From contig JAGGWW010000012.1 of assembly GCA_021163365.1 (NCBI GenBank), positions 1-53,966 of the forward strand: 53,966 nt of DNA, written 5' to 3'. The DNA comes from Nanobdellota archaeon. Lineage in GTDB: Archaea > Nanobdellota > Nanobdellia > CSSed11-243R1. Below the pieces are notes generated by a model. That model worked only from the letters and a program-made list of their open reading frames with translations, did not search any database and was not told where the DNA came from. Of the stretch, positions 5,330 through 53,052 are shown one piece after another (position 1 is the stretch's first letter; each line of letters begins with the position of its first letter). The translations under genes were made by a program, and so were the position numbers.

Positions 5330-5381
5330 GAAAATAAAAAGAATTGTAAAATTTAAAAAGGATTAGATTTTACTCAAAAGC

Positions 5382-5579: not shown

Positions 5580-5588
5580 CTTCTGAAA

Positions 5589-7133
5589 ATGGAATTAAAA
5601 ATATCTAACAAATTTAGTATTGATGCAAATAAGTTAGTTAGTGGAAGAATCTGCGTAATAGGACAAAGTGGTTCTGGGAAAAGCTATGCTGTTGCTGTAA
5701 TATGTGAAGAGCTCGCAAAAAATGGAATTGGGTTCTGCATCATAGACACAGAAGGCGAATACTTTAGTTTAAAAGAAAAGTATCCATTGCTGTGGGTTGG
5801 GTTAGATGAAAACAGCGACATAAACATACAAGAAATTGATTTAAATCTCTTAGCTAAGAAATCAATTGAAAAAAACATACCTGTAATCCTCGACATCTCA
5901 GAAGTTGCAAATCCAATTGAAATAGTAAAAAAATTTGTATCAGCAGCGTATAAAATTGAAAGCAGTTTGAAACAACCATATCTTATAATAATTGAAGAAG
6001 CTGATAAGTTTGTGCCTCAAAAAGGGGAGTACATAAAAGAAATTGAAGAAGTTAGCAAAAGAGGTAGAAAAAGAGGGCTTGGCTTAATAATTGCAACACA
6101 AAGACCAGCTTCTGTAAATAAAAATATTCTATCACAATGTAACATTCAACTTATAGGAAGATTAACAATTAAAAATGATATAGATGCAGTTAAACACTTT
6201 TTTCAAAATAAAGAAGATTTAGAAAAGTTACCAGAACTAAAACCTGGAGAATTCTTTGTTAAAGGTGAAATTGCATCTCCAGAGATAGTAAAAATTAGAA
6301 AAAGAGAAACAAAACATAAAGCAACAACACCAAAGGTTGTTCAAAAGAAAATTGATAACAAAGAATTAACTAAGGTTAAAAAAGAATTAACAGAAAAAAT
6401 AGAAATCCCAGAGGAAGTAACTGTACTTTGTGTTGAGCCAAAGTTAGATAAAAATGAAGCTGTTGCAAAGATAAAAAAATGGATTAGATTATTTAAAAGA
6501 AAATCCCTGATTTCAAATGTTAATCTCATACTTAAGCCTATTTATGAATGTGAAATAAAATATCTAAGGAAAAGACTAATGTTAAGAGATTTTGTCACAA
6601 TTAAAAGTTATTTTGATGGAATAAGTGGAGCAGTTCTTTCTCTTGCAAAAGGATATCATAAAATTTGCAATCTTCACGAATTTATTGGATTAAATCAAAA
6701 TGACATCGAAGTCTTTAAAGAACTAATGAAGAAAAAGTTGTCAACCTTAGAATTAGCTCATAAGTTAAAACGTTCACCAGAAGCAATTAGGCTTTCATTA
6801 AAAAATCTTATTTCAAAAAACTTAGTTAGAAGCAAAAGAATTGGAAGGTCGCAAGTATATTTTGTATTTACAAAAGCGCGATTACCAAGCATGAAAAAAT
6901 TATCACAAAAAGAAGTAGAGATAAAGAGAATGAAATTAAGAGGGATAAAACTTGAGGCAAAAGTTAAACCAAAAGATATCTCACCAATTGTAAGAGGAAT
7001 TTATGAAAAAGCTGATATTGTTAAAGAAAAACTTATCTACTATCCAATTTACAAAGCTTTAATATTAAAGGGAAAAACACAAAAAACAATTTACATAGAT
7101 GCTGTAACTGGAAAAAGAATCAAAAAATTCTAA
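5589..7133 (+). CDS. HerA/DUF87-like P-loop ATPase fused to a C-terminal winged-helix region
   Basis: Walker A GQSGSGKS, Walker B LIIIEEADKF, and the RGRKRGLGLIIATQRP arginine-finger region typical of HerA/FtsK-like ATPases. The C-terminal roughly 230 aa contain a wHTH-like stretch (STLELAHKLKRSPEAIRLSLKNLISKNLV). Confidence 0.6.
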   Translation: MELKISNKFSIDANKLVSGRICVIGQSGSGKSYAVAVICEELAKNGIGFCIIDTEGEYFSLKEKYPLLWVGLDENSDINIQEIDLNLLAKKSIEKNIPVILDISEVANPIEIVKKFVSAAYKIESSLKQPYLIIIEEADKFVPQKGEYIKEIEEVSKRGRKRGLGLIIATQRPASVNKNILSQCNIQLIGRLTIKNDIDAVKHFFQNKEDLEKLPELKPGEFFVKGEIASPEIVKIRKRETKHKATTPKVVQKKIDNKELTKVKKELTEKIEIPEEVTVLCVEPKLDKNEAVAKIKKWIRLFKRKSLISNVNLILKPIYECEIKYLRKRLMLRDFVTIKSYFDGISGAVLSLAKGYHKICNLHEFIGLNQNDIEVFKELMKKKLSTLELAHKLKRSPEAIRLSLKNLISKNLVRSKRIGRSQVYFVFTKARLPSMKKLSQKEVEIKRMKLRGIKLEAKVKPKDISPIVRGIYEKADIVKEKLIYYPIYKALILKGKTQKTIYIDAVTGKRIKKF

Positions 7134-7539: not shown

Positions 7540-8478
7540 ATTAAAGGATTACACATTTTAGAAATTCAAGAACTTCCAAAAGAATTCTTTCTTGAGTTAT
7601 TTGAATTAGCTAGGGACATAGAAAAAAATCCAGAAAAGTATTCGCACACTTTAGAAGGAAAAGTTGTTGCAACACTTTTCTTCGAGCCAAGCACAAGAAC
7701 AAAAGATAGTTTCATTTCTGCTGTTGAAAAATCAGGAGGAAAGATTATAGGGTTTGACTCTGTCCAAGGTTCAAGTGTTAAAAAAGGAGAAAGCTTAGCT
7801 GACACAATTAGAATGTATGCTGGCTATTCTGATTTAATAGTAATAAGGCATAGCAAAGATGGCGCAGCAAGGCTTGCATCTGAATATTCCATAAAGCCAA
7901 ATACTGGAGAAATAGTGCCTGTAATAAACGGTGGTGATGGACAAAATCAACATCCCACTCAAACAATGCTCGATTTATACACAATAGAAAAAGAATTAGG
8001 AAAACTTAAAGGTTTGCACATTGCTTTGGTTGGAGATTTAAAATATGGAAGAACAACGCATTCCCTTCTTTTTGGCGCAGCAATGTTTGGAATGGAGATA
8101 AGCTTAGTTGCCCCACAACAAATCCAGATGCCAGAAAAGCACTTAGTAAAAGTAAAAGAACTTTATGATGTAAATCCAAAGTTTCACAATTCCATTGAGG
8201 ATATTATTTCTGATGTTGATGTTTTATATATGACAAGAATACAAAAGGAAAGATTTCCAGATATAAATGAATATAGAAAAGTAGCTAATGCGTTTGTACT
8301 TAATTCGAAGCTAATGGAATTAGCAAAGGAAAAAATGATAGTAATGCATCCATTACCAAGAACAAATGAGATAAAACCAGAAGTAGATAAAGATAAAAGA
8401 GCGGCATATTTCAAACAGGCTGAAAATGGTGTTCCTATAAGAAGAGCTTTAATGTATAAGGTTTTGGAAGTGGTATAA
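7540..8478 (+). CDS. pyrB: aspartate carbamoyltransferase catalytic chain; start codon non-canonical (ATT proposed)
   Basis: The frame is open from 7525. The 96 codons upstream of the first ATG (7813) encode clear ATCase sequence (FFEPSTRTKDSF, SSVKKGESLADTIR), and HPLPR lies downstream. No ATG/GTG/TTG occurs between the TGA at 7522 and 7813. Confidence 0.75.
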   Translation: MKGLHILEIQELPKEFFLELFELARDIEKNPEKYSHTLEGKVVATLFFEPSTRTKDSFISAVEKSGGKIIGFDSVQGSSVKKGESLADTIRMYAGYSDLIVIRHSKDGAARLASEYSIKPNTGEIVPVINGGDGQNQHPTQTMLDLYTIEKELGKLKGLHIALVGDLKYGRTTHSLLFGAAMFGMEISLVAPQQIQMPEKHLVKVKELYDVNPKFHNSIEDIISDVDVLYMTRIQKERFPDINEYRKVANAFVLNSKLMELAKEKMIVMHPLPRTNEIKPEVDKDKRAAYFKQAENGVPIRRALMYKVLEVV

Positions 8479-18573: not shown

Positions 18574-18887
18574 TGTTTCCTGGAATGGATGCAAAAAAAT
18601 TAAAAAAGATGATGAAAGACATGGAACAGATTCCAGCAGAAAGAGTAATAATTGAAGGACAAAAAAAACTTGTAATTGAAGAGCCGCAGGTTATAAGAAT
18701 AAACCTCATGGGGCAAGAAACATATCAAATTGTGGGAAAAGCAAAAGAAATTGAGCAAGAACCTTTTACAAATGAAGATGTTAAGCTTGTAATGGAACAA
18801 ACAGGAAAAACAGAAGAAGAAGTGAGACAAGCGTTAAAAAAGAATGAAGGAGATATTGCAAAAACAATTTTAGAGCTTAAAGGCTAA
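18570..18887 (+). CDS. nac: nascent polypeptide-associated complex protein (NAC with UBA domain)
   Basis: PGMDAKKLKKMMKDM N-terminus, a NAC beta-barrel region and a C-terminal UBA-like EEEVRQALKKNEGDIAKTILEL. Confidence 0.8.
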   Translation: MMFPGMDAKKLKKMMKDMEQIPAERVIIEGQKKLVIEEPQVIRINLMGQETYQIVGKAKEIEQEPFTNEDVKLVMEQTGKTEEEVRQALKKNEGDIAKTILELKG

Positions 18888-20343
18888 TCTTTTCTATTAT
18901 TCTAATAAACATATTTTTTGTTAAAACTAATATTGTTGCTAATCCTATTAAAACAGGGCCGCTTATCCTTGGAAGTATGAAAACAAGCACTCCGAATATT
19001 GCAATAGAAATCAAAAGATAAACATTAAGTTTCTTTGATATTTCTATAAGCTTGCTTTTCATTGCTCCTTCTTTTTTAACTCTTCTTACAATGTAAAATT
19101 GGTATGCGAATGTTGCAACTCCTGCTAAGATAAAGCCAATTAAAGTTTGTAAAGACACTATAGCATTAAATCCTGAAATAGTTCCAACCACAATCGCCAT
19201 TTCTGAGAATCCAAGGGCTAAAGAAGCTATAAATACTTTAGACTTTTTAAGCAAGAAAAATGCTAAAGCAGAACTAAAGATAATAATAAAAGCCCAAATT
19301 GAAAATGATAATTTAACTGCATTTGGATGAAGTGGCTCTATTTCTGAAACTTCAACAACTTTTGCATTAAGTTTACCAGCAACAATTGATTGTGCAAATC
19401 TTAATCTTTTTTCTGCATCTGTTCTTGTTGGCGCCTGCCCGCTAAAAATCGGCTTATAATAAGGAAGGGCTTTGCTTTCTGCGTATATCTCTTCTTTTCC
19501 TATAAGCTTACCATCTATGTAATAATCAATTGTTGCATTTAACAAACATCTATCAAGATGGCAAGATTTAATGCTTAAATTTTTTGTTAAGTCAACAAAT
19601 CTTTCTCCAGCCTCTTTGTTTAAAGACAGTTGAAAACCATAATTCCAAACAACTTCTGTACCTTCTGCTGTTCTATTTGCATAAGGATATAAGTGCATTA
19701 CACAATTAACCCCACTTACACAATAATCTTCTATGTCATCTGTTGTGAAAAACGTTTCATTGCCTATTTTTGCAACAAGCTCTCCTTTTGTTTCAATGAG
19801 AGGAATAATCTTTTCTTTAACTTCAGAAGTTAAAATAACAACATTCCCATTTTCCTTGTAAACAGAAAAATCGTGGATTTTGTTTATTGTTAACCTTTTC
19901 TTGATTATGTCAACTGCATTTGATTGATTTGTTTGAACAACAATTTTATTTCCACCAGAAAGAGAATAGCTAAATCTAAGATTAGAAAACCTTGTTTTAT
20001 CGACAATTATACCTAAATTTGTTTTATTGTCTTTTTCTTCTGCAATAAACAAATGAGTTACACTTCTATAGTTATAAGGAAAGGTTTCTCTTAATACAAT
20101 AATTTCAACAGTATCATTTGGTTTTATTTCACTTGAAACATCGTAAAACTCATCAACGCTTGTTATTAAATTTCCGTTCAAGTAATTAACCAAATCTCCT
20201 TGTCTTAAAACAAGTGAAGCAGGATATTCAACATCTTTTATAACAACAGCCTCTTTCGTAAATGGATGAATTAAGAAAAATGCCCATAAAACTAAGATTG
20301 CAATTAGTGCTGGCCTAAGGTATCTTAAATAACCCATAGACAT
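18877..20343 (-). CDS. membrane protein with PDZ-like domain and a SecD/SecF-like C-terminal TM bundle (tentative)
   Basis: N-terminal TM, a PDZ-like GDLVNYLNGNLITSVDEF...VEIIVLRE, a large extracytoplasmic region and five C-terminal TM helices. One segment (LQTLIGFILAGVATFAYQFYIVRRVKKEG) is loosely reminiscent of SecD/F. Confidence 0.35.
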   Translation of the reverse strand: MSMGYLRYLRPALIAILVLWAFFLIHPFTKEAVVIKDVEYPASLVLRQGDLVNYLNGNLITSVDEFYDVSSEIKPNDTVEIIVLRETFPYNYRSVTHLFIAEEKDNKTNLGIIVDKTRFSNLRFSYSLSGGNKIVVQTNQSNAVDIIKKRLTINKIHDFSVYKENGNVVILTSEVKEKIIPLIETKGELVAKIGNETFFTTDDIEDYCVSGVNCVMHLYPYANRTAEGTEVVWNYGFQLSLNKEAGERFVDLTKNLSIKSCHLDRCLLNATIDYYIDGKLIGKEEIYAESKALPYYKPIFSGQAPTRTDAEKRLRFAQSIVAGKLNAKVVEVSEIEPLHPNAVKLSFSIWAFIIIFSSALAFFLLKKSKVFIASLALGFSEMAIVVGTISGFNAIVSLQTLIGFILAGVATFAYQFYIVRRVKKEGAMKSKLIEISKKLNVYLLISIAIFGVLVFILPRISGPVLIGLATILVLTKNMFIRIIEKISL

Positions 20344-20364: not shown

Positions 20365-20650
20365 GAAGTTTTCTAAAGCGGGCGGGCGCGCCAGCTCTCG
20401 AGAAACCGCACCAGTGGCAGTCCCCAGACCTTTTCTCCACCCCGTATCCTAAGAGCACACGCTATTCTGCTTAGGGCTGCTCCATCCCTGGCCTGACCCG
20501 GTTCACAGAATAACGCATCCCTTAGGGCGAGGCTTCTTAGATACGGCCTGGGCTTACCAAAAATGCGGTAACCCTCAAGCTGGCTTCGGCCCCCCATAAG
20601 GACGGTTTGGGGTTAACAGGCCACGCCCAGCGGCCCACCTAGCCCGCCCA
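20365..20650 (-). ncRNA. signal recognition particle RNA (archaeal 7S/SRP RNA)
   Basis: GC-rich island in an AT-rich genome. The minus strand starts GGGCGGGCUAGGUGGGCCG and ends GCGCGCCCGCCCGCUUU, so the termini pair. Alu-domain motifs CCUGUUAACC and GGGGGGCCGAAGCC are present, as is the helix 8 motif GGGUCAGGCCAGGGAUGGAGCAGCC. About 285 nt. Confidence 0.85.
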
Positions 20651-22220: not shown

Positions 22221-24032
22221 ATGATGGATTTAGTGAATGGAACGCATGCCTACTGCACAGCTTTCTTTGAACCAAGCAAATACAACTTAACACAAACAGA
22301 AATAAAAACCATGCTTGCACAAATTCCTGCTTTAAGAGCAATTGATAATTTATACATTCTTCAAAAAAGCGGTGTGAATGGATTAAAGATTTGGAAAGGT
22401 GTAAATAGTATTTTAAGAGTTTATGGATACGACACTGGAGGTCAAGGCGGAGTTATACACACAAACTACTCAACAGAGTTATTAAACTATAGAAATGCAT
22501 TCTCTATTTACGGTGCACCATGGGATTCTAAGGGAAATAAAATAAAACTAGAATTCACAGAAGAAGATTGGAAAAGATTTTCTGATGAGATTTCAAAACA
22601 TGGTAATGTTCAAGTTGATTTAAAAGAAATTTTTCAATTAATTAAAAATCCTGGAAAGCCAAAAAAAGCGTACGAAGTTTTCATAAATGATACAGGACTT
22701 TCAGACGAAGAATTTGAAGAAAAGATGTCTAAGCTTTTTGAAGAGGAAATCAAAAGACTAACAGATTTAGAAAAATCTGCAAGACAAAATCCATTTTTAA
22801 GAATTGATTCACGAATAATTGTTAAAGGTAAAGAAATTCCCATGTTAATAGAAACACCATACTACGAAGTGCCTGAATGGGCGCCTTATGTAAAAGAAGC
22901 TGCAGAAGCATTATGGAAAGCATCAAGAATAATCAAAAGCGAATATCCAATCTATAGCTTAATCTTATCATCAACAGCAGAGTCTATGATAACTGGAAAT
23001 ACTGATTTAAGAGATGCCCTTATTGCTCAAAATGATTCTAGGCTTTTTACCCTTGCTGGTGTTTGTGAAGATTACATAGGAATGATGCAAGGTTGGACAT
23101 TTGTTAAAAAAGGAGCCTATGAAATGTTTCTTGGTGTAAAAGACCCTGAAACAACACAGTTAATACAAAAAGCAAAAGACAAATTACCTGAAATGCTAAA
23201 AGAGATTCCAACTGATTTAAGAAATGATTCTATTCCAAACATAAACATAAACGCATATGTGCATGCATGGATTGCTGGTGAAGCAAACCACATGGGTGCT
23301 CAAATTCTTGCAGTTAATTGGCCAAATAAAAACACAATAAACAATGTTTTTCCAACAATTATATTAAACGTTAATGAACACACTTTAAAAGCAAAGCATG
23401 TTTTCTTACCAATGGTTAGAGAAGGACTAATCGAGGACCAATTTGAGAAAAACATAAGTTATGAAACCCTTCCTAAAGCATGGCTTACCCAAACAATAAT
23501 ACATGAGATTTCTCATTCAATTGGTAGGGCAAAAGTTAGAGATAATAGGGCTGAAGAAGGAAAAGCAATAGCTGGCTCATTATTCAATATGAAACATGTA
23601 GCTGAAAAAGAAGTAATGAACAATGCCATTTATTCTTTTCCAGTAGAGCTTATAAGAGCAATTAGAAGAAGAGTCGATAAAAATGGAAAAGTGAATGGTT
23701 CTCATGAAATAGCATCAAATGCAATCTTAGAATATTGTTATGCAAGTGGCGCATTAGATGTTGAAAATAGTAAGTTTGTTATAAAATCACCAAATGAATT
23801 AGTTAATGCTGTTGGTAATTTTTACATAGATGTGTTGAACTTAGCACAAGAATCACAATCAGAAATAGATAAGTTCTTTGATAAATATTCTTCAATCTCT
23901 GAGAAAACAAAAGGTGTAATACAAACCTTAAACAATGCAAACATTCCACTTGACATATTCATTGACAGAGGTTCATTAGATGAATTGGAATATTGGTTAA
24001 GAGAAGCATTAGAATCATCTCCTAACAGATAA
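22221..24032 (+). CDS. HExxH zinc metallopeptidase-like protein, possibly DPP III (M49)-like
   Basis: 603 aa with IIHEISHSIG followed about 10-15 aa later by RAEEGKA, resembling the HExxH / EExxA(E) pair of M49 enzymes. A GGGGGTG SD precedes the ATG. Confidence 0.4.
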   Translation: MMDLVNGTHAYCTAFFEPSKYNLTQTEIKTMLAQIPALRAIDNLYILQKSGVNGLKIWKGVNSILRVYGYDTGGQGGVIHTNYSTELLNYRNAFSIYGAPWDSKGNKIKLEFTEEDWKRFSDEISKHGNVQVDLKEIFQLIKNPGKPKKAYEVFINDTGLSDEEFEEKMSKLFEEEIKRLTDLEKSARQNPFLRIDSRIIVKGKEIPMLIETPYYEVPEWAPYVKEAAEALWKASRIIKSEYPIYSLILSSTAESMITGNTDLRDALIAQNDSRLFTLAGVCEDYIGMMQGWTFVKKGAYEMFLGVKDPETTQLIQKAKDKLPEMLKEIPTDLRNDSIPNININAYVHAWIAGEANHMGAQILAVNWPNKNTINNVFPTIILNVNEHTLKAKHVFLPMVREGLIEDQFEKNISYETLPKAWLTQTIIHEISHSIGRAKVRDNRAEEGKAIAGSLFNMKHVAEKEVMNNAIYSFPVELIRAIRRRVDKNGKVNGSHEIASNAILEYCYASGALDVENSKFVIKSPNELVNAVGNFYIDVLNLAQESQSEIDKFFDKYSSISEKTKGVIQTLNNANIPLDIFIDRGSLDELEYWLREALESSPNR

Positions 24033-27241: not shown

Positions 27242-27787
27242 ATGGGATTGGAAAACAGTCTTAAAGAAAAATCAGAATCAAAGCTTGTTAGAATATTAGA
27301 AAAAGCTAATGCTGTTTTACCAACACCAAGAAAAGTAATTGTGAAAGTTAGACATAGTTATAATAAAAAAGAGCCGCATTTGGAAATTGAATATAATCCA
27401 GAAAAAGTGTATAAGGTGCTTAAAGAATTAGGATATGATGTTGATGTAAAAGACATAGGGCATCCTTCTCTTTCTTTAGAATCTCTTGAAGATGGAGTCA
27501 TACCTGAGTATGACTTTGGAGAAACTCTGGTTGCTGCTAAGAAATTAGAAGAAGGAAGGAGAATACACGCAAGAATGTGGGTAGAAAAAAAAGGAGGAAG
27601 AAAATACTATAGGGTGGAGGTACACACAGAAATATATCCAACAAGAGAAGACCTACATTATCCACAAAATGTGTGGGAATGGCTAACAAGAGCAAGATTG
27701 CACATCATAGACCCAAATGCAAATTACAAAGAAGGAGCAGAAATATTTCAAAAGGAAATAGAAGGAAAGTTGAAAATATACAACTAA
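27242..27787 (+). CDS. hypothetical protein
   Basis: 181-aa ORF with no recognised motif. Confidence 0.4.
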   Translation: MGLENSLKEKSESKLVRILEKANAVLPTPRKVIVKVRHSYNKKEPHLEIEYNPEKVYKVLKELGYDVDVKDIGHPSLSLESLEDGVIPEYDFGETLVAAKKLEEGRRIHARMWVEKKGGRKYYRVEVHTEIYPTREDLHYPQNVWEWLTRARLHIIDPNANYKEGAEIFQKEIEGKLKIYN

Positions 27788-30030
27788 AAAGCTGCTTGCA
27801 CTTCTCTTCCAAAAAACTTGCTTGCCTTCTTTGCATTTTTTTCTGAGATTTTTAACATCTTCTCAAGTTCTTTTATATTCTCTTCAGCTTTTTTAACAGA
27901 ATGCTCCATTGTGAAAGAATTACTTGAAATTACTGAAATAGCTCTCTCAGCTTTCTTTAAATCAGTAACAAGTTTATTTGTAGAATTAAGAGTAGTTATT
28001 AACTCTGAGAAAAGTTCTCTTTCCTCTTCTCCAAACAAATCAGGATATTTTTGCATAACATCTTCCAATTTTCTTATCCCTCTTTCTATATCCCACATGC
28101 AGAATTCAGCATTTCGAAGGTCATGAGCAAAATCTTTCTCAAGCAATTTCATTTCTTGATTGTACTCAAAAATTCTTGCAAGCATTAAACCTTCTTCCTT
28201 AAATGTGTTTATTAAAACCTTAACAAAGTTAACATACTCATCTAAGTTTGTTTTATTTTCAAACCACTTTCTAAGATAAGATAGCTCTATCGACTCCTCA
28301 TGCTCTTCTTCACTTAAGTAATGCTCTGCAAGTGAGATGTCTTTAATTATCTTACTTGCGAGAAAACCACCCTTTGCAAACTTAAATCTTGGGGCTTTTT
28401 TAATTGCTTTTCTTATATCATTTGCAGCTGGTGTGAATTCTTTTTTCATTTCAAGATGTCTTTTTTCTAAATCTTTTAACTTTTCCTCAAGTTCAGCTAT
28501 CTTTGCTTTTGTTTCAGCTTCTTCTTCAGCTGTCTTTGGTGCTCCAGCTTTAGCTTCTTCTTTTACTATTTCTTTTTCTTCTTTTAGAGAGTGTTTAAGT
28601 TCATTTATGTCTGCTTTTAAATCTCTAATTGCTTTTTTAGTTCCAGCATCAACTGATTTCTCTATTGCTATAAGAGATTTATCAAACTTCTTTAGATTCT
28701 TTAAAAAAGCATCATTCTCTAATCTGTAAATCAATGACATATCTTTTTCAAGCCTTTTTATAACCCCTTCTTCACCTGCAAACTCCTTAAATATCTCTCT
28801 TCTTTCATTGTCTATGTTTTTTAAAGCAGGAACAAGTGCTTTTTCTGCAAAGTTTGCTATTTTTTCTAAAAAGGTTAGTGCGCCAGATGGGTTTTTCTTT
28901 GCTAATTTGTACGCACTTATCAAAGAATGATTTATCCATGTTAGTTGTGGTTTTAACCTAATATCGCTAATAAGAAGATTGTTTAAAAACCGTGAAATCA
29001 TCTGGGAAAACTTATTCATGTTTTCAAATAAGATTTCTATGTCAGAAAGCTCTTCTTCCATTTGTTTTTCTTCTTTTAAAAGCTCTTTTTCTTCAGAGCT
29101 GAGTAAAGATATGTTTTTACCAATTTCTGCACCATATTTAGCAGCTCCTTTCTTTATCTTTTCTAAGTGCTTCTGTATGTTCTCCATTTTTTTCATTAAC
29201 TTCTTTAATCTCTTAGACACCTTTGCTTCTTTTTTCTCTTTTTTCTCTTCTGCTTTAAACCTCTTTGGAGAACCACCAATTAATTTCTCTATTTTTTCAT
29301 GTTCTTTAATCAGCTCGAAAATATCTTTTATATCACGAGTTATACCATTTATTGCTTTAACCTCTTCCTTCATAAACTTAGCAAAGAAGATTTCCTCTTT
29401 TTGAAAAGTTAACATTAGTTTCTTGTAAAAATGAGCTGCAAAAAATAAACTCATTAATCTCCTTGCATAAATACCCTCTCTCATTGAGAGAGAATACGCT
29501 TTTTCAAGAGATGAAATCTCTTTTTGAGTTAACTTTGCTAATTTCTTATCTCTTCTTGCTTCTTTTTTTAAAATATTTTCACACTTTTTTGTTAATTTCT
29601 CTACTTTCTCTAACTTTGCTCTTATTCGCTTTGGCAGTCTTCTTTCGCTTTGTTCTTCTTCTTTAAGTTCAAATTCTGTTTCTCTAAGCATGGGATAAAG
29701 ATATCTTGCTTGTACAGATATTTCATTTCTTTCCATGCCTATGTATTTAATAAGCATGGATAAAGCCCATGTTTTTTCAGAAAGATATTGAACCAAGCCT
29801 TTTCCTCTACCTCTTCTTGACCTTCCAAAAACAGTTCTTTTAGATGCTTTACCTTTTGCTTCAATTTCTGCACCAGCTGCTTCTGCTAAAGGTTTTGATA
29901 TTTCAGTTACTTCTATGTATTTTGCAATTGCTGAACCAAATTTTTCAAGAAATTGCTCATGTCTTGCAAAAATAGATTCTAAGATATCCAAATTTCGTCT
30001 TAATTGTTCTTCTGCACCTCTTAATTCCAC
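27784..30030 (-). CDS. large lysine/glutamate-rich coiled-coil protein
   Basis: 748 aa, dominated by heptad-like K/E/L-rich helices with no enzymatic motif. The antisense ORFs are S/F-rich shadows. Confidence 0.5.
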   Translation of the reverse strand: MELRGAEEQLRRNLDILESIFARHEQFLEKFGSAIAKYIEVTEISKPLAEAAGAEIEAKGKASKRTVFGRSRRGRGKGLVQYLSEKTWALSMLIKYIGMERNEISVQARYLYPMLRETEFELKEEEQSERRLPKRIRAKLEKVEKLTKKCENILKKEARRDKKLAKLTQKEISSLEKAYSLSMREGIYARRLMSLFFAAHFYKKLMLTFQKEEIFFAKFMKEEVKAINGITRDIKDIFELIKEHEKIEKLIGGSPKRFKAEEKKEKKEAKVSKRLKKLMKKMENIQKHLEKIKKGAAKYGAEIGKNISLLSSEEKELLKEEKQMEEELSDIEILFENMNKFSQMISRFLNNLLISDIRLKPQLTWINHSLISAYKLAKKNPSGALTFLEKIANFAEKALVPALKNIDNERREIFKEFAGEEGVIKRLEKDMSLIYRLENDAFLKNLKKFDKSLIAIEKSVDAGTKKAIRDLKADINELKHSLKEEKEIVKEEAKAGAPKTAEEEAETKAKIAELEEKLKDLEKRHLEMKKEFTPAANDIRKAIKKAPRFKFAKGGFLASKIIKDISLAEHYLSEEEHEESIELSYLRKWFENKTNLDEYVNFVKVLINTFKEEGLMLARIFEYNQEMKLLEKDFAHDLRNAEFCMWDIERGIRKLEDVMQKYPDLFGEEERELFSELITTLNSTNKLVTDLKKAERAISVISSNSFTMEHSVKKAEENIKELEKMLKISEKNAKKASKFFGREVQAAF

Positions 30031-33632: not shown

Positions 33633-34406
33633 GTGATTTCAATGGGATTGTTCAACAAAATAAAAAAACTAACAAAAAGAAAAAAGACAGTTAAGAAAAA
33701 AGCAAAAAAGGTTAAGAAACAAGTTAAAAAGAAGGTTGTAAAAAAACCTAAAAAAACCGTGAAGAAACAAAAGAAAAAAACAGCAAAAAAGAAAACAACA
33801 AAGAAAAAAGCAAAAGCACCAGCTAAGAAAGCAAAGAAAACTGCAAAGAAGAAAATTGAAGCACCAAAAAAATTTACAAAATCAAGGGTTGAAAAACTTC
33901 TTTCATTAAAAGATGTAAAAGAATACTTAGTTGACTTATTTGGAATTGAAGGATTTAAAATCATTGAATATTTACTTAAAGCTGGAAAAGAAATTGATGA
34001 ATTCACTCTTGCAGATAAAGTAAAATTACAAATAAACTTTGTTCGCTCATTGCTTTACAAACTTTATGAATACAAACTTGTTGTATTTTCAAGAGAAAGA
34101 GACAAGAAAAAAGGGTGGTTCATATATTCATGGCAAGCAAGACCTGAGCGATTAAAAGAACTTTTGTTAAACAAAAAAGATGAAGAAATAGCAAAACTTA
34201 TGAAAAAATATCTTGATGAACAACAAGTGTTTTATTGCAAAGAGTGCGATAAGATGTTCTCTTATTCAGAAGCAATCGAGCATATGTTCTTTTGCCCTTA
34301 TTGTGGTTCTCAGCTTGAAGCAGTTGAGCAAACAAAATTCAAGCAAAAAATAAAGGAAAAAATTGCAAAACTCCAAAAAGAAAAAAAGGCAATAGAAGCA
34401 ATTTAA
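33633..34406 (+). CDS. tfe: transcription factor E (TFE alpha) with roughly 80-aa lysine-rich N-terminal extension
   Basis: Winged-helix region (GFKIIEYLLKAGKEIDEFTLADKVKLQINFVRSLLYKLYEYKLV, GWFIYSW) and zinc ribbon CKECDK...CPYCGS. The N-terminus is a K/A/T/V low-complexity stretch. Start is GTG at 33633 or ATG at 33642. Confidence 0.75.
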   Translation: MISMGLFNKIKKLTKRKKTVKKKAKKVKKQVKKKVVKKPKKTVKKQKKKTAKKKTTKKKAKAPAKKAKKTAKKKIEAPKKFTKSRVEKLLSLKDVKEYLVDLFGIEGFKIIEYLLKAGKEIDEFTLADKVKLQINFVRSLLYKLYEYKLVVFSRERDKKKGWFIYSWQARPERLKELLLNKKDEEIAKLMKKYLDEQQVFYCKECDKMFSYSEAIEHMFFCPYCGSQLEAVEQTKFKQKIKEKIAKLQKEKKAIEAI

Positions 34407-35332
34407 GCATACATAACTTCTGGACTCTTTTTCTTTAATACTTTTGGTGGACTAACATATAATTTCTTCATATACATTGCTAAAGACATTCCAACACTTG
34501 AAGGTACTACAAAATAATCTTCTTTATCTTCCTTTCTTAATCTTAAAGCAAATGTTGGATTATCTGCACCTAAAACAATTAATCCATTGTTAGATTCAAA
34601 TGTTTCATCATAAAGGTAAACTCCAAGCAAATCAACATTTGAATAAGCAAATATATCAAGAATTAAAGAAGGCAAGTTTTTAACATATAAAAAGTCATCT
34701 AACAAAGGTGTTTCTTCAAACTCTTTACATAAAAACGGTGTATTTGGTGGTGCATATTCCTTTGGTAAATTGTACATAAATAAACCATTGCTGTTTGTGA
34801 AGCTAAGACGATAAACTAAGAAAATATCATTGTTACCAGGATAGTAATTTCTTTCTAGTTGATTTAAAGATAAATCAATAAATTCTTTGGGCTTCTTAAA
34901 ATCAACCCCATTTAAATTTAACTCTTGCGAAATAGGAATAGTATCAACATCGCTCATTCTCAAGTATCTCTCTGGCACATACAAATTAAAATCAACCAAG
35001 GGGAGTGCAAATAAAATCTGTTCTAACCTGTGAAGATTGAGATTATCTCCATCCAAACAAACTTCTGCAATATATCCTGTGGGTTCTTCAAGGACAACAT
35101 AAACATCCATAGATTCAACATTGCAAAATTCAAACATCCTCTTTCCTTCTTTTACCAAGGGATGAAAATGTTTTTTACCATAAGAATCAAGCATAGATAA
35201 TACTTCGCTTTGGAGGAGTCTAACAGCAAAAGAACCTTTGCCTGTTGAAAAAAGGACATATCCAAAAAAATCTTTATCAAGTACTTGAAAACTTGTAACT
35301 TTCTCCATAAAGAAGAAATAGGGATTTTTCAT
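34403..35332 (-). CDS. hypothetical protein
   Basis: 309-aa ORF with no confident motif. Confidence 0.4.
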   Translation of the reverse strand: MKNPYFFFMEKVTSFQVLDKDFFGYVLFSTGKGSFAVRLLQSEVLSMLDSYGKKHFHPLVKEGKRMFEFCNVESMDVYVVLEEPTGYIAEVCLDGDNLNLHRLEQILFALPLVDFNLYVPERYLRMSDVDTIPISQELNLNGVDFKKPKEFIDLSLNQLERNYYPGNNDIFLVYRLSFTNSNGLFMYNLPKEYAPPNTPFLCKEFEETPLLDDFLYVKNLPSLILDIFAYSNVDLLGVYLYDETFESNNGLIVLGADNPTFALRLRKEDKEDYFVVPSSVGMSLAMYMKKLYVSPPKVLKKKSPEVMYA

Positions 35333-35371: not shown

Positions 35372-35503
35372 TAGCCCCGCGCGGACTTCCGAGCACCCAC
35401 GGATTTTCTTTCCGTGCACGCTTTCTTTTTTAAGAAAGGGTGCGTTCGAACCGCGGTCACAGGGTCCAAAGCCCTGTATGCTTGGCCACTACACCACGGG
35501 GCT
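35372..35503 (-). tRNA. tRNA-Gln (anticodon UUG) with a 59-nt intron at T-loop position 59/60
   Basis: The minus strand reads AGCCCCG UG GUGU AGUGGCCAA GCAU A CAGGG CUUUGGA CCCUG UGAC CGCGG UUCGAA[59 nt]U CCGCG CGGGGCU A. An oligo-U tract follows the 3' end. Confidence 0.85.
35386..35444 (-). other. T-loop 59/60 intron of tRNA-Gln (59 nt)
   Basis: BHB drawn by eye: T stem CGCGG/CCGCG, 4-bp helix UUCG/CGGA, bulges AA|C and AG|U, and inner helix GCACCC/GGGUGC with one extra U. Two internal hairpins: CUUUCUU-AAAAA-AGAAAG and CACGGA-AAGAAAA-UCCGUG. Confidence 0.75.
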
Positions 35504-36704
35504 ATCTCTTTGGAGGCTTACCTCTTCCTCGTATTGCTCCGCCTCTTTTTACTGCATAATAATTTTTCCCTTCTCTTTTTTTGTACTTCTTTTGAAGTTG
35601 GGTTAAAAGCCTGTTAAATGCATCCTGCAATGTAAACATTAAATTATAACCATACCATGGCTCTTTACTTGTTACTACTTCTCCTCTGCCAGCTGACTTA
35701 AGCAAATGAACTTTAATTTCGTAATTCCATTTCTCTGGTGTTGCACCATGTATTTTCTTTATATGTATGTTTATGCTTTCTAAATCTGGGCATATTTGCT
35801 TCATCTTTCTTATGTCTGATTTTAAGTAATCCTTTATTAATTCTATTGTTTCAATTTTTAATGGAAATCCTGAGAAGTGCAACCAAACACCCTCTTTAAA
35901 CTTTCTTTCAGCAAGCTTATCTAAAACTTTCCATCTTTCAAATAAACCAACAACCTTCTTCTCATCATCAACAACTGGAACACCCTTCATGTTTCTATCC
36001 AAAAGAGATTTAAGAACATTAGAAACACTGTCTTTTGGTTTAACTTCTGGCAAATCTCTTATAATCAAAGACTTAACTGGCATTGAAAATGGATTAATCG
36101 CCTTTCCTGCCCTGTCTTTTCTTCCAAGCTTTTCTTTTGGTTTTTTGTAAAATGTTCTTAAAATGTCTAAAGAAGTTATAGCACCTAAAAGTTTTCCTTC
36201 TTCATCAACAACTGGAAGCATGTTCCATCTATTGTGCCTCATCCATCTTCTTGCTTCTGATACACTTTCATCTTCTGTAAGAACCTTTATCTCCTCTTCC
36301 ATAACATCTCTTACTTTGAGCCCTTTTATTCTTCTATCATTTAACAGGCTTTTTAATATATCATAATCAGAAATTAAACCAACAAGTTTTTCCCCATCTA
36401 AAACAGGTATTGCTTCAACACCTGTTTTTACCATAAGCGTTATTACATCTCCAATAGGTGTATCTGGAGAAACAATGGGTGGCTTAATCATTAAAGTTGA
36501 CACTTTTTCTTCTGGGTCAGCCCTTACAAAGTCAAGAATATCGTAGTACGTAACCATGCCAACAAAAATTCCATTTTCAACAATTGGCACTTCTTTTATT
36601 CCATATCTTTCCATCTTTGAAACTACTTTTTTTATTTGTTCATCTGGAGAAGCAGTCTTTACATTTTTAGTCATGATATCTTTAGCTGTTTTCAAATTCA
36701 TCAC
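35502..36704 (-). CDS. four-CBS-domain protein with C-terminal HPF/RaiA (S30AE)-like domain
   Basis: Four consecutive CBS repeats (each ending ..G(I/L)(V/I/F)(T/S)..D(I/V)L). The last roughly 120 aa (LHFSGFPLKIETIELIKDYLKSDIRKMKQ...INIHIKKIHG...YEIKVHL...FTLQDAFNRLLTQLQKKYKK) follow the beta-alpha-beta-beta-beta-alpha sequence pattern of hibernation promoting factor. Confidence 0.7.
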   Translation of the reverse strand: MMNLKTAKDIMTKNVKTASPDEQIKKVVSKMERYGIKEVPIVENGIFVGMVTYYDILDFVRADPEEKVSTLMIKPPIVSPDTPIGDVITLMVKTGVEAIPVLDGEKLVGLISDYDILKSLLNDRRIKGLKVRDVMEEEIKVLTEDESVSEARRWMRHNRWNMLPVVDEEGKLLGAITSLDILRTFYKKPKEKLGRKDRAGKAINPFSMPVKSLIIRDLPEVKPKDSVSNVLKSLLDRNMKGVPVVDDEKKVVGLFERWKVLDKLAERKFKEGVWLHFSGFPLKIETIELIKDYLKSDIRKMKQICPDLESINIHIKKIHGATPEKWNYEIKVHLLKSAGRGEVVTSKEPWYGYNLMFTLQDAFNRLLTQLQKKYKKREGKNYYAVKRGGAIRGRGKPPKR

Positions 36705-36728
36705 CTTACATTATTTTGCATTGTATTA

Positions 36729-38261
36729 TTATAAAGCTTTTGACATATAATAACCTGTTTTTCTATATCCAAACTTCCTGTAATATTCGCGAACACCAAT
36801 TCCAGATATAATGTAAAGTCTTTTGTAGCCATTTTCTTTTGCAATTTTCTCAGCTTCCTTCAAAAGCTTTCTGCCATATCCCCTGTGCTGCCATTTGCCT
36901 TTTTCCCCAATTAACACTTGCTCGCCATATACATGTAGCTCTCTAACTATTGCCATCTTTGAAAGTCGCAATCTTAAAAATCCAATTAAAACATCGTTTT
37001 TATCTTTAAATTGCAAAAAGAACTCTTTACCTCCACTTGCATCATATACTATTGTATGAAGCTTTATTGAACTAACATCTACTTTTCCACCATTTTTTAA
37101 AACATGCCCAACTTCTCTACACCTTATGCACTTACATTTAATTTTCTTCCTCTTAAGCTCTTGTTGTAAAATTTGTCTTAAATTAGTTGCTTTAATTCCA
37201 GCTTGAATTTCTGTACCAGGAATATCTCTTTCTATTCTCATAATCCTTACCCACTCTGGTATATTCTTCTTTAGCTCTATGATAACATCTTTAGCATAAT
37301 CTTCATCAATGGGTTTGTATTTACCTTTTTTCCAATCATTGTAAAGCTTTGAACCTTTTATCACAAGTGTTGGGTATATCTTAAGCATATCAGGTCTAAA
37401 ATCTGGATTTTCAAATATTTCCTTTAAAGCTTTAATATCCCTTTCTTTTGTTGTTCCTGGAAGCCCAAGCATCATGTGATACAAAACCTTAAACCCCCTA
37501 TCTTTTAGTATCTTTGTTGATTCAATTACATCCTTTACAGTATGTCCACGATTAACCTTTTTGTAAACATCGTCATAAATTGTTTGAACCCCAAGCTCAA
37601 CTCTTGTTCCACCAAGCTTAAGCATAAAATCAGCATGCTTTTCCTTTCCATAATCTGGCCTTGTTTCAAAAGTCATTCCAACACAACGTATGTTCGCCTT
37701 TTCATTTGCTTTTTGAACCTTTTCCAAAGAATAACTCTTTTTTGGCTTATCCTTTGGAAACAAGTTCATTGCAAGTAAACAATCTTTTACAAAATTTTCT
37801 TGATATTTCTTTGGCATTGCTGGAAAAGTTCCACCCATTATAATAAGTTCAACTTTTTGTGGAATATGTCCTGTTAAAAATAGCTGATTTAATCTATTTT
37901 GAACTTGTTTGTATGGGTCAAATTTGTTTGCAATTGCTCTTCTAGCTGCAGGTTCTTTTCCAGTATAAGATTCTGGAACATTGTTAACATGCGGGCAATA
38001 AGAACACTTTCCATGAGGACATGGCCAAGGTTTTGCCATAACAGCTATTACAGCAACTCCAGAAATTGTTCTTGTTGGCTTTATTTGTAAAAGCTTTCTA
38101 ACTTTTTCTTTGTCATTTGCAACAGCTAAGATTTCTGCATTTTGTGGGAATTTATCAAGCTTATATTTAATTGCAAGTTCCTTTTTACGCCTAGCTAAAT
38201 CTCTTTTTGTTTTTATCTTTCCTGATTCTATTTCTTTTACTATTTGTTGTAAAACATCCAT
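36729..38261 (-). CDS. elp3: Elp3-type radical SAM/GNAT tRNA U34 modification enzyme
   Basis: Radical SAM cluster region CPHGKCSYCP, a TIM-like core and a C-terminal GNAT (QHRGYGRKLLKEAE). 510 aa. Confidence 0.9.
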   Translation of the reverse strand: MDVLQQIVKEIESGKIKTKRDLARRKKELAIKYKLDKFPQNAEILAVANDKEKVRKLLQIKPTRTISGVAVIAVMAKPWPCPHGKCSYCPHVNNVPESYTGKEPAARRAIANKFDPYKQVQNRLNQLFLTGHIPQKVELIIMGGTFPAMPKKYQENFVKDCLLAMNLFPKDKPKKSYSLEKVQKANEKANIRCVGMTFETRPDYGKEKHADFMLKLGGTRVELGVQTIYDDVYKKVNRGHTVKDVIESTKILKDRGFKVLYHMMLGLPGTTKERDIKALKEIFENPDFRPDMLKIYPTLVIKGSKLYNDWKKGKYKPIDEDYAKDVIIELKKNIPEWVRIMRIERDIPGTEIQAGIKATNLRQILQQELKRKKIKCKCIRCREVGHVLKNGGKVDVSSIKLHTIVYDASGGKEFFLQFKDKNDVLIGFLRLRLSKMAIVRELHVYGEQVLIGEKGKWQHRGYGRKLLKEAEKIAKENGYKRLYIISGIGVREYYRKFGYRKTGYYMSKAL

Positions 38262-44815: not shown

Positions 44816-45904
44816 TCAATTAAAACCCTTAGCATGATTTACAATATTTTCAAGTTGCGCTTTTGAATTAACTTGGTTAATTACGTAAACCCTTGGAAAC
44901 CTTCTCATTGGGTCTATTGAAGGATGATGCCAAATTTCTTTAATCTCATGAGGGGCATCCTTTATTAATTTTATAAAGTCTTCATCATAAACAACTTCCA
45001 TTATTTTAACATTAGTATCTGGAATTAATCTTAAGTCGACATTTCCAATCTCATAATTCCAATAACAATTTCCATCATCTTCAAGAACAATGCCTGTTCT
45101 TTTTGCACCAAAATCTTTTAACCATTTAGAAATTTTTCCCATCTGATATTTAACATCTGAAGTATAATTTTCACAATCCTTTACGCAATTAAATGTGAAC
45201 TTTCTTCCTAATTGATTTTTAACAATATCTGAAAGGATATCATTCTTTAAAAGCTCAACATCAATTTCAAAAAGTTTTTTTCCTTCTATGTATCTCATTT
45301 GAAGCTCTTTTACAACTAAATCAGGGGTTATATTATATGGTATAAAAATCTCATCACCAATTAAAGGCTTGCAACGATTAATTCTATCTTCAAGCCCAAG
45401 TTCATATGCAACAACATTTGCAGCAATATGTGTGCAAACAACAGCATAAACCCTGCTTTCATCAGAAATCCTTGAATAAACAGCTTCCTCACATCCGCAA
45501 ACAACATCATACAAACTGCTTACTTCTCCATGTTTTTGCATTAACCCTTTTATTGCAGTTAAATGAACAGTTGGATTTCTATAGCCAGTGCTTCCTTTTC
45601 TTCCACCATGACTTCTTGATTTAACAATAGCATTAGAAACAGTTCCACCATCTGATATTTTTAAAACACCTTGTCTTTTAATTAAATTTAAACTTCCTTT
45701 AACTCTTTTAACACCATTTTCAAGCTCTGAAAAAGAATAATTAGAATGTTCTCTCCAAACTTGTTTCAACTCCTTTTCTGGCCAAACCATTGCATATGCT
45801 TCTGCAAATCTTGATGGAGGAAAAACAATAGTTCTATGTTGTGTATTATAAGCAATGCCATAGCCCCTTGGTATTAAACCAAAGTTAACTGTGTTCTTTG
45901 GCAT
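44816..45904 (-). CDS. hypothetical protein with SWIM-type zinc finger
   Basis: 362 aa. VVCGCEEAVYSRISDESRVYAVVCTHIAANV fits CxCx(n)CxH, with the CxHI(A) context typical of SWIM. Confidence 0.5.
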   Translation of the reverse strand: MPKNTVNFGLIPRGYGIAYNTQHRTIVFPPSRFAEAYAMVWPEKELKQVWREHSNYSFSELENGVKRVKGSLNLIKRQGVLKISDGGTVSNAIVKSRSHGGRKGSTGYRNPTVHLTAIKGLMQKHGEVSSLYDVVCGCEEAVYSRISDESRVYAVVCTHIAANVVAYELGLEDRINRCKPLIGDEIFIPYNITPDLVVKELQMRYIEGKKLFEIDVELLKNDILSDIVKNQLGRKFTFNCVKDCENYTSDVKYQMGKISKWLKDFGAKRTGIVLEDDGNCYWNYEIGNVDLRLIPDTNVKIMEVVYDEDFIKLIKDAPHEIKEIWHHPSIDPMRRFPRVYVINQVNSKAQLENIVNHAKGFN

Positions 45905-52062: not shown

Positions 52063-53052
52063 ATGGTGCTCTTAGATGAATTTAAAGAATTAGAAAAAAT
52101 GGGGTATATAAATGAGGGTTTAAAAAGACAATTACAAAAGCTTGGTTCTGATTTAGAAACATATGAAAGAGAAAAAGGTAAAAAACAAAAAGAGATCGAT
52201 TCTCTTGATGAAGTTATAAACGAATTAGAATTAGCACTAAGTGAAGCAAGAGAAACACACAACAAAAAATTGGAGGAAGTAGTTAAAATCTCTAATAAGT
52301 TTGAACTTGATAAAATAAAAAGCAAAGTTGAAGGAGAATACAACACAATAATAGAGATGACTTACAAACTTCAGAAAAGAAAAGAATTAAGGAATAAATT
52401 ACAAGGAGAGCTTGCAGAGATAATTGAAAAAGGTTCCAAGGTAACAGCATATGCTGATGAAGCAAGAAGCTACATAAGAAAAGTAAAAGAATTAGCTGAT
52501 GTGATAGAAAACTTAGAAAAAGAAAGGGGCGAAACATGCAGTAAGTTTAAAGAAGAAATACCAACAGAAACATACCATGCTTACATTTTCCTTAGAAGAC
52601 TAATAGAAGGAATGCTAGAGAAAAAACATGAATACATTGATGAGATTGGACTTGATTTCTTAACAAAAGAAAAAAGAAAAGGGAAGGGAAGGAAAAAAAT
52701 ATACTTAAAACCAGAACAAGTAACATTAACACCACAGAATATAAACGAATTCTGTGGAAAAATACTTAATTATTGTCAAGGAAAGGCAGGAACAATTCTT
52801 GGAGAAGAAGTTGATAATGTGTTCAAAGAAATAGCTGAGAAGTGCAAAGTAAAAGAGTACCTACCAAACACATTGCTTGAGTGGATAACTAATTTAAAAC
52901 CATTAAATAATTCAGAGAAGTTATCCTTATGCGAACAGTATGCAACAAAAGAATCAGACTATAAAACAAAGATACATAACATCAAAAGCAGGATTGATAT
53001 TGAAACAGCTAACATTATGTCAATGTTAGAAAAAGGAGGCTATAAAGCGTAG
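52063..53052 (+). CDS. coiled-coil hypothetical protein
   Basis: 329 aa. The N-terminal two thirds are heptad-like K/E/L-rich. Confidence 0.45.
   Translation: MVLLDEFKELEKMGYINEGLKRQLQKLGSDLETYEREKGKKQKEIDSLDEVINELELALSEARETHNKKLEEVVKISNKFELDKIKSKVEGEYNTIIEMTYKLQKRKELRNKLQGELAEIIEKGSKVTAYADEARSYIRKVKELADVIENLEKERGETCSKFKEEIPTETYHAYIFLRRLIEGMLEKKHEYIDEIGLDFLTKEKRKGKGRKKIYLKPEQVTLTPQNINEFCGKILNYCQGKAGTILGEEVDNVFKEIAEKCKVKEYLPNTLLEWITNLKPLNNSEKLSLCEQYATKESDYKTKIHNIKSRIDIETANIMSMLEKGGYKA

Follow-up and report, generated by a model that had tools for sequence, protein, structure and literature searches.

A probable HibA/AHA-type ribosome hibernation factor encoded beside an Elp3 homologue in a DPANN archaeon

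The fusion of a CBS tetrad to an HPF/RaiA-like domain is already described for Archaea, as HibA and AHA in 2025–2026. HibA is PAB0961 (Q9UYR4) of Pyrococcus abyssi and TK1186 of Thermococcus, with structures in PDB 9SR9–9SRF and 9T7H (Madru et al., Nat Commun 2026; PMC13324472). It was first preprinted in October 2025 as 'Hib' (PMC13324472). AHA was described for Haloferax volcanii (bioRxiv 2026), and its family covers 2,723 archaeal species in 17 phyla (PMC12934967). Cryo-EM structures and knock-outs are published. [quoted passage not shown] A HibA loop, residues 190–207, inserts into the peptidyl-transferase centre (PMC13324472). The CBS module binds AMP, ADP and ATP, with a Kd of 12 μM for AMP (PMC13324472; PMC12934967). 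AMP or ATP caused no detectable change in ribosome binding or conformations of HibA (PMC13324472). Both papers term the HPF domain small and fast-evolving (PMC13324472; PMC12934967). The origin of archaeal HPF is disputed, being placed in LUCA by the AHA paper (PMC12934967) and in an early transfer from Bacteria by the HibA paper (PMC13324472).

The locus studied here lies in a stretch of 53,966 nucleotides, the window. An open reading frame of the HibA/AHA family is located on the minus strand at 35502–36704, with 400 amino acids from a GTG at 36704 and a stop codon at 35502–35504. Translation probably starts at a TTG at 36695, yielding 397 amino acids and the N-terminus MKTAKDIM, since the database copy of the protein (P0001, 397 amino acids) and the N-termini of homologues agree with this start. 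A Shine-Dalgarno-like AGGTGA can be read from the sequence 5 nt upstream of the TTG (36701–36706, minus strand). Public annotation of the database copy is limited to 'CBS domain-containing protein'. A tblastn search with the protein detected no paralogue and no further gene of the CBS/HPF type in the window, and a Pfam scan of 29 other large open reading frames found no further hibernation-related gene.

Very probably, the product of the gene is a ribosome hibernation factor of the HibA/AHA type from a DPANN (Nanoarchaeota/Woesearchaeota-like) archaeon. P. abyssi HibA (9sr9_H) is the top PDB sequence match of the full-length protein (E 1.3e-26), with residues 18–354 collinear to HibA residues 17–355 at an identity of about 24%. 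The architecture is the same: a CBS tetrad in residues 1–269 followed by an HPF/RaiA-like domain in residues 270–392 of P. abyssi HibA, and 1–267 followed by 272–376 in the window protein. AHA (HVO_2384) belongs to the same family under another name; according to its published description, it also has a CBS tetrad, an extended loop 3 in the peptidyl-transferase centre and an HPF domain that occupies the 30S A and P sites. The hosts differ, a low-GC, mesophile-like DPANN archaeon here and a hyperthermophile for HibA. For 9L96, a 406-amino-acid CBS protein in the PDB that is related to HibA, a literature search found no publication.

The CBS tetrad occupies residues 1–267 (35904–36704, minus strand). 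The original prediction of two Bateman modules with four CBS repeats in the N-terminal 270 or so amino acids was borne out by four PF00571 matches over residues 5–266 approximately (E 6.5e-50): CBS1 at about 5–60, CBS2 at 66–120, CBS3 at 129–187 and CBS4 at 208–266. The AlphaFold2 (AF2) model folds four beta-alpha CBS units into a tetrad, with pLDDT values mostly of 85–96, and the tetrads of MJ1225, SriA and AMPK gamma superpose on it (Foldseek, 1e-20). By homology, the tetrad would be both a 50S-binding and an adenine-nucleotide-binding module. For the CBS module alone, HibA 9sr9_H is again the best PDB sequence match (E 1.5e-24).

Similar CBS modules occur in other archaeal hibernation factors with CBS tetrads, Dri of Thermoproteota (9E6Q, 9E7F) and SriA–D or ARC-A/P of Methanosarcina (9ZNF–9ZNI). 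Their chains match the window protein with E values of 1e-16 to 1e-20, at scores under those of HibA. Unlike the window protein, they have no HPF/RaiA domain: Dri consists of two CBS tetrads, and Sri proteins are standalone tetrads on single subunits. The distribution of Dri and Sri is largely exclusive with that of HibA/AHA (PMC13324472; PMC12934967). AMPK gamma and MJ1225 share the tetrad fold (TM 0.65–0.79, target-normalised), and the window protein has canonical adenine-nucleotide motifs. The window protein differs from them by the presence of the HPF domain and by a context with no kinase partner. The relation is one of shared module ancestry, not of function.

The HPF/RaiA-like domain comprises residues 272–376 (35577–35891, minus strand). 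The AF2 model predicts beta1 (274–279), alpha1 (284–304), beta2 (308–322), beta3 (325–336), beta4 (350–353) and alpha2 (355–375), with pLDDT values of about 90 in beta1, alpha1 and beta2. In a Foldseek search of the PDB with the isolated domain, the best 21 matches were all HPF, RaiA or pY (E 2e-6 to 2.5e-3). Chloroplast pY (6eri_BV) matched with a TM score of 0.79 and an rmsd of 2.9 Å, and Escherichia coli HPF (2rql) with 0.75 and 2.7 Å, both TM scores being normalised to the HPF chain. The comparison of the model with HPF/RaiA structures thus recovered the S30AE fold, in agreement with the original assignment of the C-terminal 120 or so amino acids to an HPF-like domain. The hand alignment behind that assignment was in register, with LHFSG on beta1, KIETIELIKDYLKSDIRKMKQ on alpha1 and LTQLQKKYKK at the end of alpha2. 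It agrees with HMM alignments to PF02482, TIGR00741 and the HPFs of Staphylococcus aureus, Listeria and E. coli. Compared with bacterial HPF, the beta2-beta3 hairpin of the model is extended and some 13 residues form a loop between beta3 and beta4; the HMM alignments to bacterial HPF contain almost no gaps. HibA carries two archaeal-specific insertions in this domain relative to bacterial RaiA (PMC13324472).

Direct sequence searches were less clear. Pfam on the full-length protein reported CBS domains only. Ribosomal_S30AE (PF02482) surfaced only with the C-terminal 130 amino acids alone and stayed sub-threshold (E 0.012, 16.8 bits against a cut-off of 23.7, profile positions 8–87 of 88), so the Pfam scan proposed with the original prediction supported the CBS part and left the S30AE part below the threshold. 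TIGR00741 behaved likewise (E 0.0034, 17.8 bits against 40.9). A phmmer search of PDB sequences with the same 130 amino acids gave non-significant matches to L3 (E 0.4) and Listeria HPF (E 0.79). A C-terminal profile of the clade only (A2) matched the PDB weakly, with HPF at E 0.021 followed by spurious PARP1 matches. The non-significant Pfam and phmmer results for the single sequence are what can be said for a resemblance that arose by chance or from the composition of an AT-rich, lysine-rich proteome. That explanation is scarcely credible and was effectively refuted: 23 homologues conserve the domain (48–76% identity, with invariant G, V, W, F, G, H, E and L positions), its predicted fold is defined, and the fold and profile matches, including the top 21 of Foldseek, are specific for HPF/RaiA.

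The S30AE link becomes significant through intermediates. The C-terminal profile, searched against 1.84 billion representatives, retrieved only CBS–HPF proteins of about 360–394 amino acids and standalone proteins of about 92–162 amino acids. PF02482 was matched above threshold by 14 of 27 of these relatives (best E 8.3e-9), and the relative P0124, with the same architecture, reached 27.8 bits. A broadened profile (A4) matched bacterial HPFs with E values of 3.1e-5 to 1e-2; those of Listeria, S. aureus, E. coli and Thermus thermophilus aligned over the full domain (3e-5 to 3e-3). Fold topology and full-domain profile alignments connect the domain to bacterial HPF, RaiA (YfiA) and pY, with the same presumed binding site. 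Bacterial HPF is standalone or has the C-terminal dimerisation domain of long HPF, whereas the window protein carries an N-terminal CBS tetrad instead. By homology, the domain would plug the decoding centre and mRNA channel of the 30S subunit. It is followed by a disordered, strongly basic tail (residues 377–400, REGKNYYAVKRGGAIRGRGKPPKR; 35505–35576, minus strand; pLDDT below 50, pI 11.5), whose length and sequence differ among homologues in alignment A1. The PDB chain 9i5v_14 is a 401-amino-acid 'RaiA' with an HPF match at residues 312–400.

Among NCBIfam models, HhpR (NF053603, E 3e-25) matches the full protein best. Together with the sub-threshold S30AE scores and the plain CBS annotation, this match would point to a metabolic or transcriptional CBS-tetrad regulator, HhpR/CM-3-like or MJ1225-like, whose C-terminal extension merely resembles HPF and has no ribosomal role. 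We regard this as highly improbable and rejected it: the match scores 89 bits where the cut-off is 520, an HPF domain is absent from the CM-3/HhpR proteins described, the first 21 fold matches of the C-terminal domain are all ribosome hibernation factors and relatives pass the PF02482 threshold. A C-terminal domain unrelated to the S30AE fold, the outcome named beforehand as speaking against an HPF-like domain, was not what fold and profile matches returned. Pfam, AF2, Foldseek, the relatives and the A4 profile all agree with an archaeal protein that combines a CBS tetrad with an S30AE/HPF fold.

Profiles A2 and A4 did not retrieve P. abyssi HibA 9sr9_H from the PDB. An hhalign comparison of the clade profile A2 with the Thermococcus HibA orthologue was non-significant (probability 1.1%, E 0.047). 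[quoted passage not shown] In the MAFFT alignment A1, which is of low confidence within this domain, the Thermococcus orthologue has four extra residues behind alpha1 and lacks three ahead of alpha2 relative to the DPANN clade. HibA entries (9SR9 and related) were not among the Foldseek matches listed, with a fold library up to 2026-04-08. In the Foldseek search with the full-length model, CBS tetrads dominated the matches.

A feature of the family is an extended loop in or after CBS3. In the window protein, a basic loop after CBS3 (pI 10.6) spans residues 188–209 (KPKEKLGRKDRAGKAINPFSMP; 36078–36143, minus strand). Residues 190–207 align gap-free with residues 190–207 of P. abyssi HibA, an equal length of 18 residues. 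P189, G200 and P209 are invariant or nearly so in the clade. AF2 pLDDT values below 50 at residues 190–198 are consistent with a flexible loop. From the alignment, the loop appears equivalent to the 'PTC loop' of HibA and 'loop 3' of AHA and is predicted to insert into the peptidyl-transferase centre.

The nucleotide motifs show differences to HibA and AHA. The motifs of CBS1 (GMVTYYD) and CBS2 (GLISDYD) have the canonical form G-h-h-T/S-x-x-D and do not vary among the 23 sequences of the clade. The CBS3 motif GAITSLD is canonical in the window protein, and its threonine varies within the clade. The CBS4 motif GLFERWK is degenerate, lacking the canonical form with the ribose-binding aspartate and the threonine or serine. 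By analogy with the described factors, the tetrad probably binds AMP, ADP or ATP. Nucleotides sit between CBS3 and CBS4 in HibA and AHA, as two AMP molecules in the latter, whereas the corresponding CBS4 motif of the window protein is degenerate; this counts against a HibA-type reading. The Thermococcus orthologue, taken as a proxy for P. abyssi HibA, has canonical CBS3 and CBS4 and a degenerate Bateman module 1, the inverse of the pattern in the DPANN clade. The invariant CBS1/CBS2 motifs and the degenerate CBS4 may reflect a move of the adenylate site from Bateman module 2 to module 1. A rewired HibA of the DPANN clade, combining this move with a conserved Elp3 transcription unit and an HPF domain nearer in sequence to bacterial HPF than to the Thermococcales HibA domain, is a tentative idea that we hold to be rather unlikely.

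[quoted passage not shown] On the large subunit, the CBS tetrad would dock where tRNAs are otherwise accommodated, and the basic loop after CBS3 would extend into the peptidyl-transferase centre. With both subunits held by one polypeptide, as proposed, an idle 70S ribosome may be kept assembled, silent and protected from degradation until regrowth.

The contact residues on the large subunit raise another possibility, an HPF-type plug of the small subunit with a CBS tetrad that only senses adenylates, for regulation or sequestration, its role at the 50S subunit and peptidyl-transferase centre having been lost or never acquired in this clade. Many N-terminal residues by which P. abyssi HibA contacts 23S rRNA are changed here; K47, W62, T65 and K66 of HibA correspond to V, A, E and E. 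Within the clade, no CBS feature is conserved more strictly than the nucleotide motifs of CBS1 and CBS2. For HibA itself, 50S-only complexes were not observed (PMC13324472), which suggests weak binding to the large subunit. Such a plug is nevertheless unlikely: the equivalent of the PTC loop is kept at the same length, basic and with conserved P189, G200 and P209; some motifs of the contact region are conserved (D63-P64, K74-P75); and HibA is still the closest solved relative of the CBS module. A HibA/AHA-type factor acting on both subunits is the preferred reading.

A homologue of the tRNA-modifying enzyme Elp3, with radical SAM and GNAT domains (Pfam), lies immediately upstream in the same orientation (36729–38261, minus strand). 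The distance from its stop codon to the HibA-like gene is 24 nt if counted to the GTG and 33 nt if counted to the TTG. This tight adjacency was found in five of six related DPANN loci, and Elp3 is a possible co-transcription partner. The host is archaeal, as indicated by the archaeal SRP RNA, class I LysRS, TFE, Elp3 and GatD/E encoded in the window and by the closest loci, which are in DPANN MAGs.

The original prediction, made from the raw sequence only, had arrived at an architecture that three laboratories reported in 2025–2026 as the principal hibernation factor of archaeal ribosomes. It had also proposed that a single protein would directly couple adenylate status to translation shutdown. 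The fusion stands; control by adenylates is a hypothesis even for HibA, on whose ribosome binding AMP and ATP had no detectable effect. The inverted motif conservation offers an inexpensive, testable way into the question of whether and how HibA/AHA factors are controlled by adenylate status. In practical terms, a gene annotated as 'CBS domain-containing protein' can be renamed HibA/AHA-like. For DPANN archaea, the text of the HibA paper mentions only standalone HPF/RaiA-like proteins (PMC13324472). Full-length HibA with conserved synteny is now documented in these genome-reduced archaea, and a dormant state of these host-dependent cells is biologically plausible. If the HPF domain of this clade is indeed nearer in sequence to bacterial HPF than to the domain of Thermococcales HibA, it would bear on the dispute between an origin in LUCA and an early transfer.

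The HibA-like protein is encoded on the minus strand by an ORF of 400 codons with a GTG start (35502..36704). The reverse complement upstream of the ORF reads ...GCTTTATAA (Elp3 stop) TAATACAATGCAAAATAATGTAAGGTGATGAATTTGAAAACA...; a Shine-Dalgarno-like AGGTGA is located 5 nt before an in-frame TTG at 36695. Initiation at this TTG yields a protein of 397 aa, as in the identical database entry P0001, and the N-terminus MKTAKDIM common to homologues. Given this spacing, length and N-terminus, the originally predicted coordinates 35502-36704 delimit the ORF correctly; the true gene start is probably TTG 36695, 9 nt inside it.

An Elp3 homologue (36729-38261, minus strand) ends 24-33 nt upstream on the same strand. 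This gap is about 24-47 nt in five of six related DPANN loci; the exception is L003, with about 1 kb. Overlapping the Elp3 stop codon is a TATA-box-like string, TTTATAATAA, so the tight gene pair may be co-transcribed or may contain an internal promoter. The order TrmB-SppA-RDD-Elp3-HibA-x-TFE-M50-LysRS is largely kept in the six loci over the extent of each. It may reflect plain synteny among fairly close genomes, as LysRS is 76-84% identical. The closest loci in GTDB genomes belong to MAGs labelled Nanoarchaeota, Nanobdellati, Parvarchaeota, Woesearchaeota and Nanoarchaeia (46-70% identity), followed after the DPANN MAGs by Methanobacteriota loci (32% identity). In the closest related contig, L001 (JAJRVP010000015.1), Elp3 was matched at 4437-5965 in two tblastn segments abutting at residue 312, pointing to a frameshift or misassembly there.

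Directly downstream of the HibA-like gene, a 309-aa ORF (34403-35332, minus strand) has no Pfam match. Although its neighbours are well conserved, its sole match in the related loci is weak (23% identity in L001); the syntenic position is occupied by a gene that either evolves fast or is lineage-specific. The TFE-alpha homologue (33633-34406, plus strand; PF02002 at residues 95-195) carries an extremely lysine-rich N-terminal extension of about 85 residues with KKxxKK repeats. The tblastn matches in related loci span residues ~84-231 only, and the extension is either not conserved or masked as low-complexity sequence.

The window has a GC content of about 31%. An archaeal SRP RNA (20380-20649, minus strand; RF01857, 143 bits) was the only Rfam match at the gathering threshold, and ARAGORN detected no tRNA gene in the 54 kb. 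Further genes encode a class I LysRS, TFE-alpha, Elp3, an M50 protease, SppA, TrmB, XPD, RNase Z, a PEP synthase-like enzyme, Nre, FtsZ and GatD/GatE. A second CBS or HPF gene was not found in the window. Five large ORFs of 329-748 aa (27784-30030, 18877-20343 and 44816-45904 on the minus strand, 22221-24032 and 52063-53052 on the plus strand) matched no Pfam family at E <= 1e-5 (cut-off 1e-3 for the 748-aa ORF) and are typical DPANN 'dark' proteins. A 221-aa ORF resembling aspartate/ornithine carbamoyltransferase (7813-8478, plus strand) aligns only with the final ~50 positions of the profile for the N-terminal domain, which binds carbamoyl phosphate; truncation of the gene or a miscalled start is possible.

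The four predicted N-terminal CBS repeats were recovered by Pfam (E 6.5e-50) and as four units, with pLDDT mostly 85-96, in an AlphaFold2 model built from 24 aligned homologues (mean pLDDT 79). The model superposes on the CBS tetrad of MJ1225 (E 1.4e-20), on ribosome-bound SriA, SriC and SriD of M. acetivorans, on Pyrobaculum Dri and on many AMPK-gamma structures. With the CBS module as sole query, HibA was the top match (90 bits), followed by MJ1225 (77 bits) and Dri (74 bits).

The C-terminal domain is predicted as beta1 (274-279), alpha1 (284-304), beta2 (308-322), beta3 (325-336), beta4 (350-353) and alpha2 (355-375). The topology is the same in the full-length model and in a separate model of residues 268-400, both with a disordered basic tail after alpha2. 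In a Foldseek search of the PDB with the isolated domain, the first 21 places were all HPF, RaiA or plastid pY, among them spinach chloroplast pY 5mmj_y (E 2e-6), 6eri_BV (target-normalised TM 0.79, rmsd 2.9 A), E. coli HPF 2rql (TM 0.75, rmsd 2.7 A) and factors from V. cholerae, Listeria, Borrelia, Coxiella, S. aureus, T. thermophilus, A. baumannii and M. smegmatis. PelC lipoproteins were the next fold class, at TM <0.45.

In sequence profile searches, the protein alone remains sub-threshold for PF02482 (E 0.012, 16.8 bits vs a cut-off of 23.7, profile 8-87 of 88) and TIGR00741 (E 0.0034). A clade-only domain profile (A2) retrieved 28 of 1.84 billion representative proteins at E <= 1e-3; 18 of these are 361-394 aa long and matched at ~260-380, the other 10 have 92-241 aa. 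Scanned singly, 18 of 27 hits contained CBS and 14 of 27 matched PF02482 (best E 8.3e-9); P0124, a relative of the same architecture, exceeds the cut-off with 27.8 bits. The first 15 matches of a profile broadened with intermediates (A4) were all HPF/RaiA. It matches bacterial HPFs over the full domain in Listeria (3.1e-5) and S. aureus (1.8e-4), and E. coli HPF at 4.9e-4 (profile 9-104 on residues 4-91 of 95). Judged by sequence, the S30AE link is thus significant via relatives and sub-threshold for the protein alone. The hand alignment to HPF in the original prediction (LHFSG... in beta1/alpha1, ...QLQKKYKK at the end of alpha2) keeps the register of the models and profile alignments.

The best solved sequence match was 9SR9 chain H with seven related entries (E 1.3e-26). 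The chain, 392 aa deposited as 'Dehydrogenase', aligns collinearly in a single stretch (window residues 18-354, chain H 17-355) with common domain boundaries. According to Madru et al. (Nat Commun 2026, PMC13324472), these entries are 70S ribosome complexes of P. abyssi HibA. HibA genes occur in 47% of archaeal genomes, mostly under the annotation 'CBS domain-containing protein'. [quoted passage not shown] The N-terminal module alone does not inhibit translation, and deletion of HibA in T. barophilus causes smaller 70S pools and delayed recovery (PMC13324472). AHA of H. volcanii, independently described, belongs to the same family, with two bound AMP molecules at CBS3/CBS4, a loop 3 that enters the PTC and homologues across 17 archaeal phyla (Souza et al., PMC12934967). 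The 401-aa chain 9i5v_14, named 'RaiA' (HPF-like match at 312-400), and the 406-aa 'CBS domain-containing protein' 9l96_a, matching the Thermococcus HibA orthologue P0031 at 1.5e-31, look like further solved members or relatives. A literature search for 9L96 found no paper.

The HibA loop 190-207 (RFKAQYGELAGEKIPPFS) aligns without gaps to window residues 190-207 (KEKLGRKDRAGKAINPFS). P189, G200 and P209 show little or no variation across the clade; residues 190-198 have pLDDT <50. Neither A2 nor A4 retrieved the HibA chain from PDB sequences, and hhalign of the clade profile with P0031, which closely matches P. abyssi HibA (E 2e-215), was in register and not significant (E 0.047). The clade domain is nearer in sequence to bacterial HPFs than to the Thermococcales HibA domain, a domain that both papers describe as small and fast-evolving (PMC13324472, PMC12934967). 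Since this C-terminal link is non-significant, membership rests on architecture, fold, loop, collinearity and CBS-module similarity. The protein very probably belongs to the known HibA/AHA family, to which it adds a new, divergent DPANN representative. The fusion of CBS and HPF domains in one archaeal protein is confirmed, and its interpretation is supported; the idea is no longer new, the HibA/AHA papers having appeared from October 2025 to April 2026.

The HibA CBS module binds AMP (Kd 12 uM) most tightly, then ADP, then ATP, with the nucleotide at CBS3/CBS4; the other Bateman module is reported not to bind ATP (PMC13324472). AMP or ATP left ribosome binding of HibA unchanged in vitro (PMC13324472), so the originally proposed direct adenylate control is still unproven. 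The HibA supplement gives the AMP motif as G-h-h-T/S-x-x-D (PMC13324472); this motif was scored in 23 DPANN-clade sequences. CBS1 (GMVTYYD) is canonical, with invariant G and D and T in 22 of 23 (S in one), and CBS2 (GLISDYD) is canonical and invariant. In CBS3, D is kept in 21 of 23 and the T/S position varies; CBS4 (GLFERWK) is degenerate. The Thermococcus orthologue P0031 is the reverse: its CBS3 and CBS4 motifs are canonical, CBS2 carries Ala in place of the Asp and CBS1 is alignable only with a one-residue gap. Because of this reversed motif pattern, the sensing site in the DPANN clade may differ from that of HibA.
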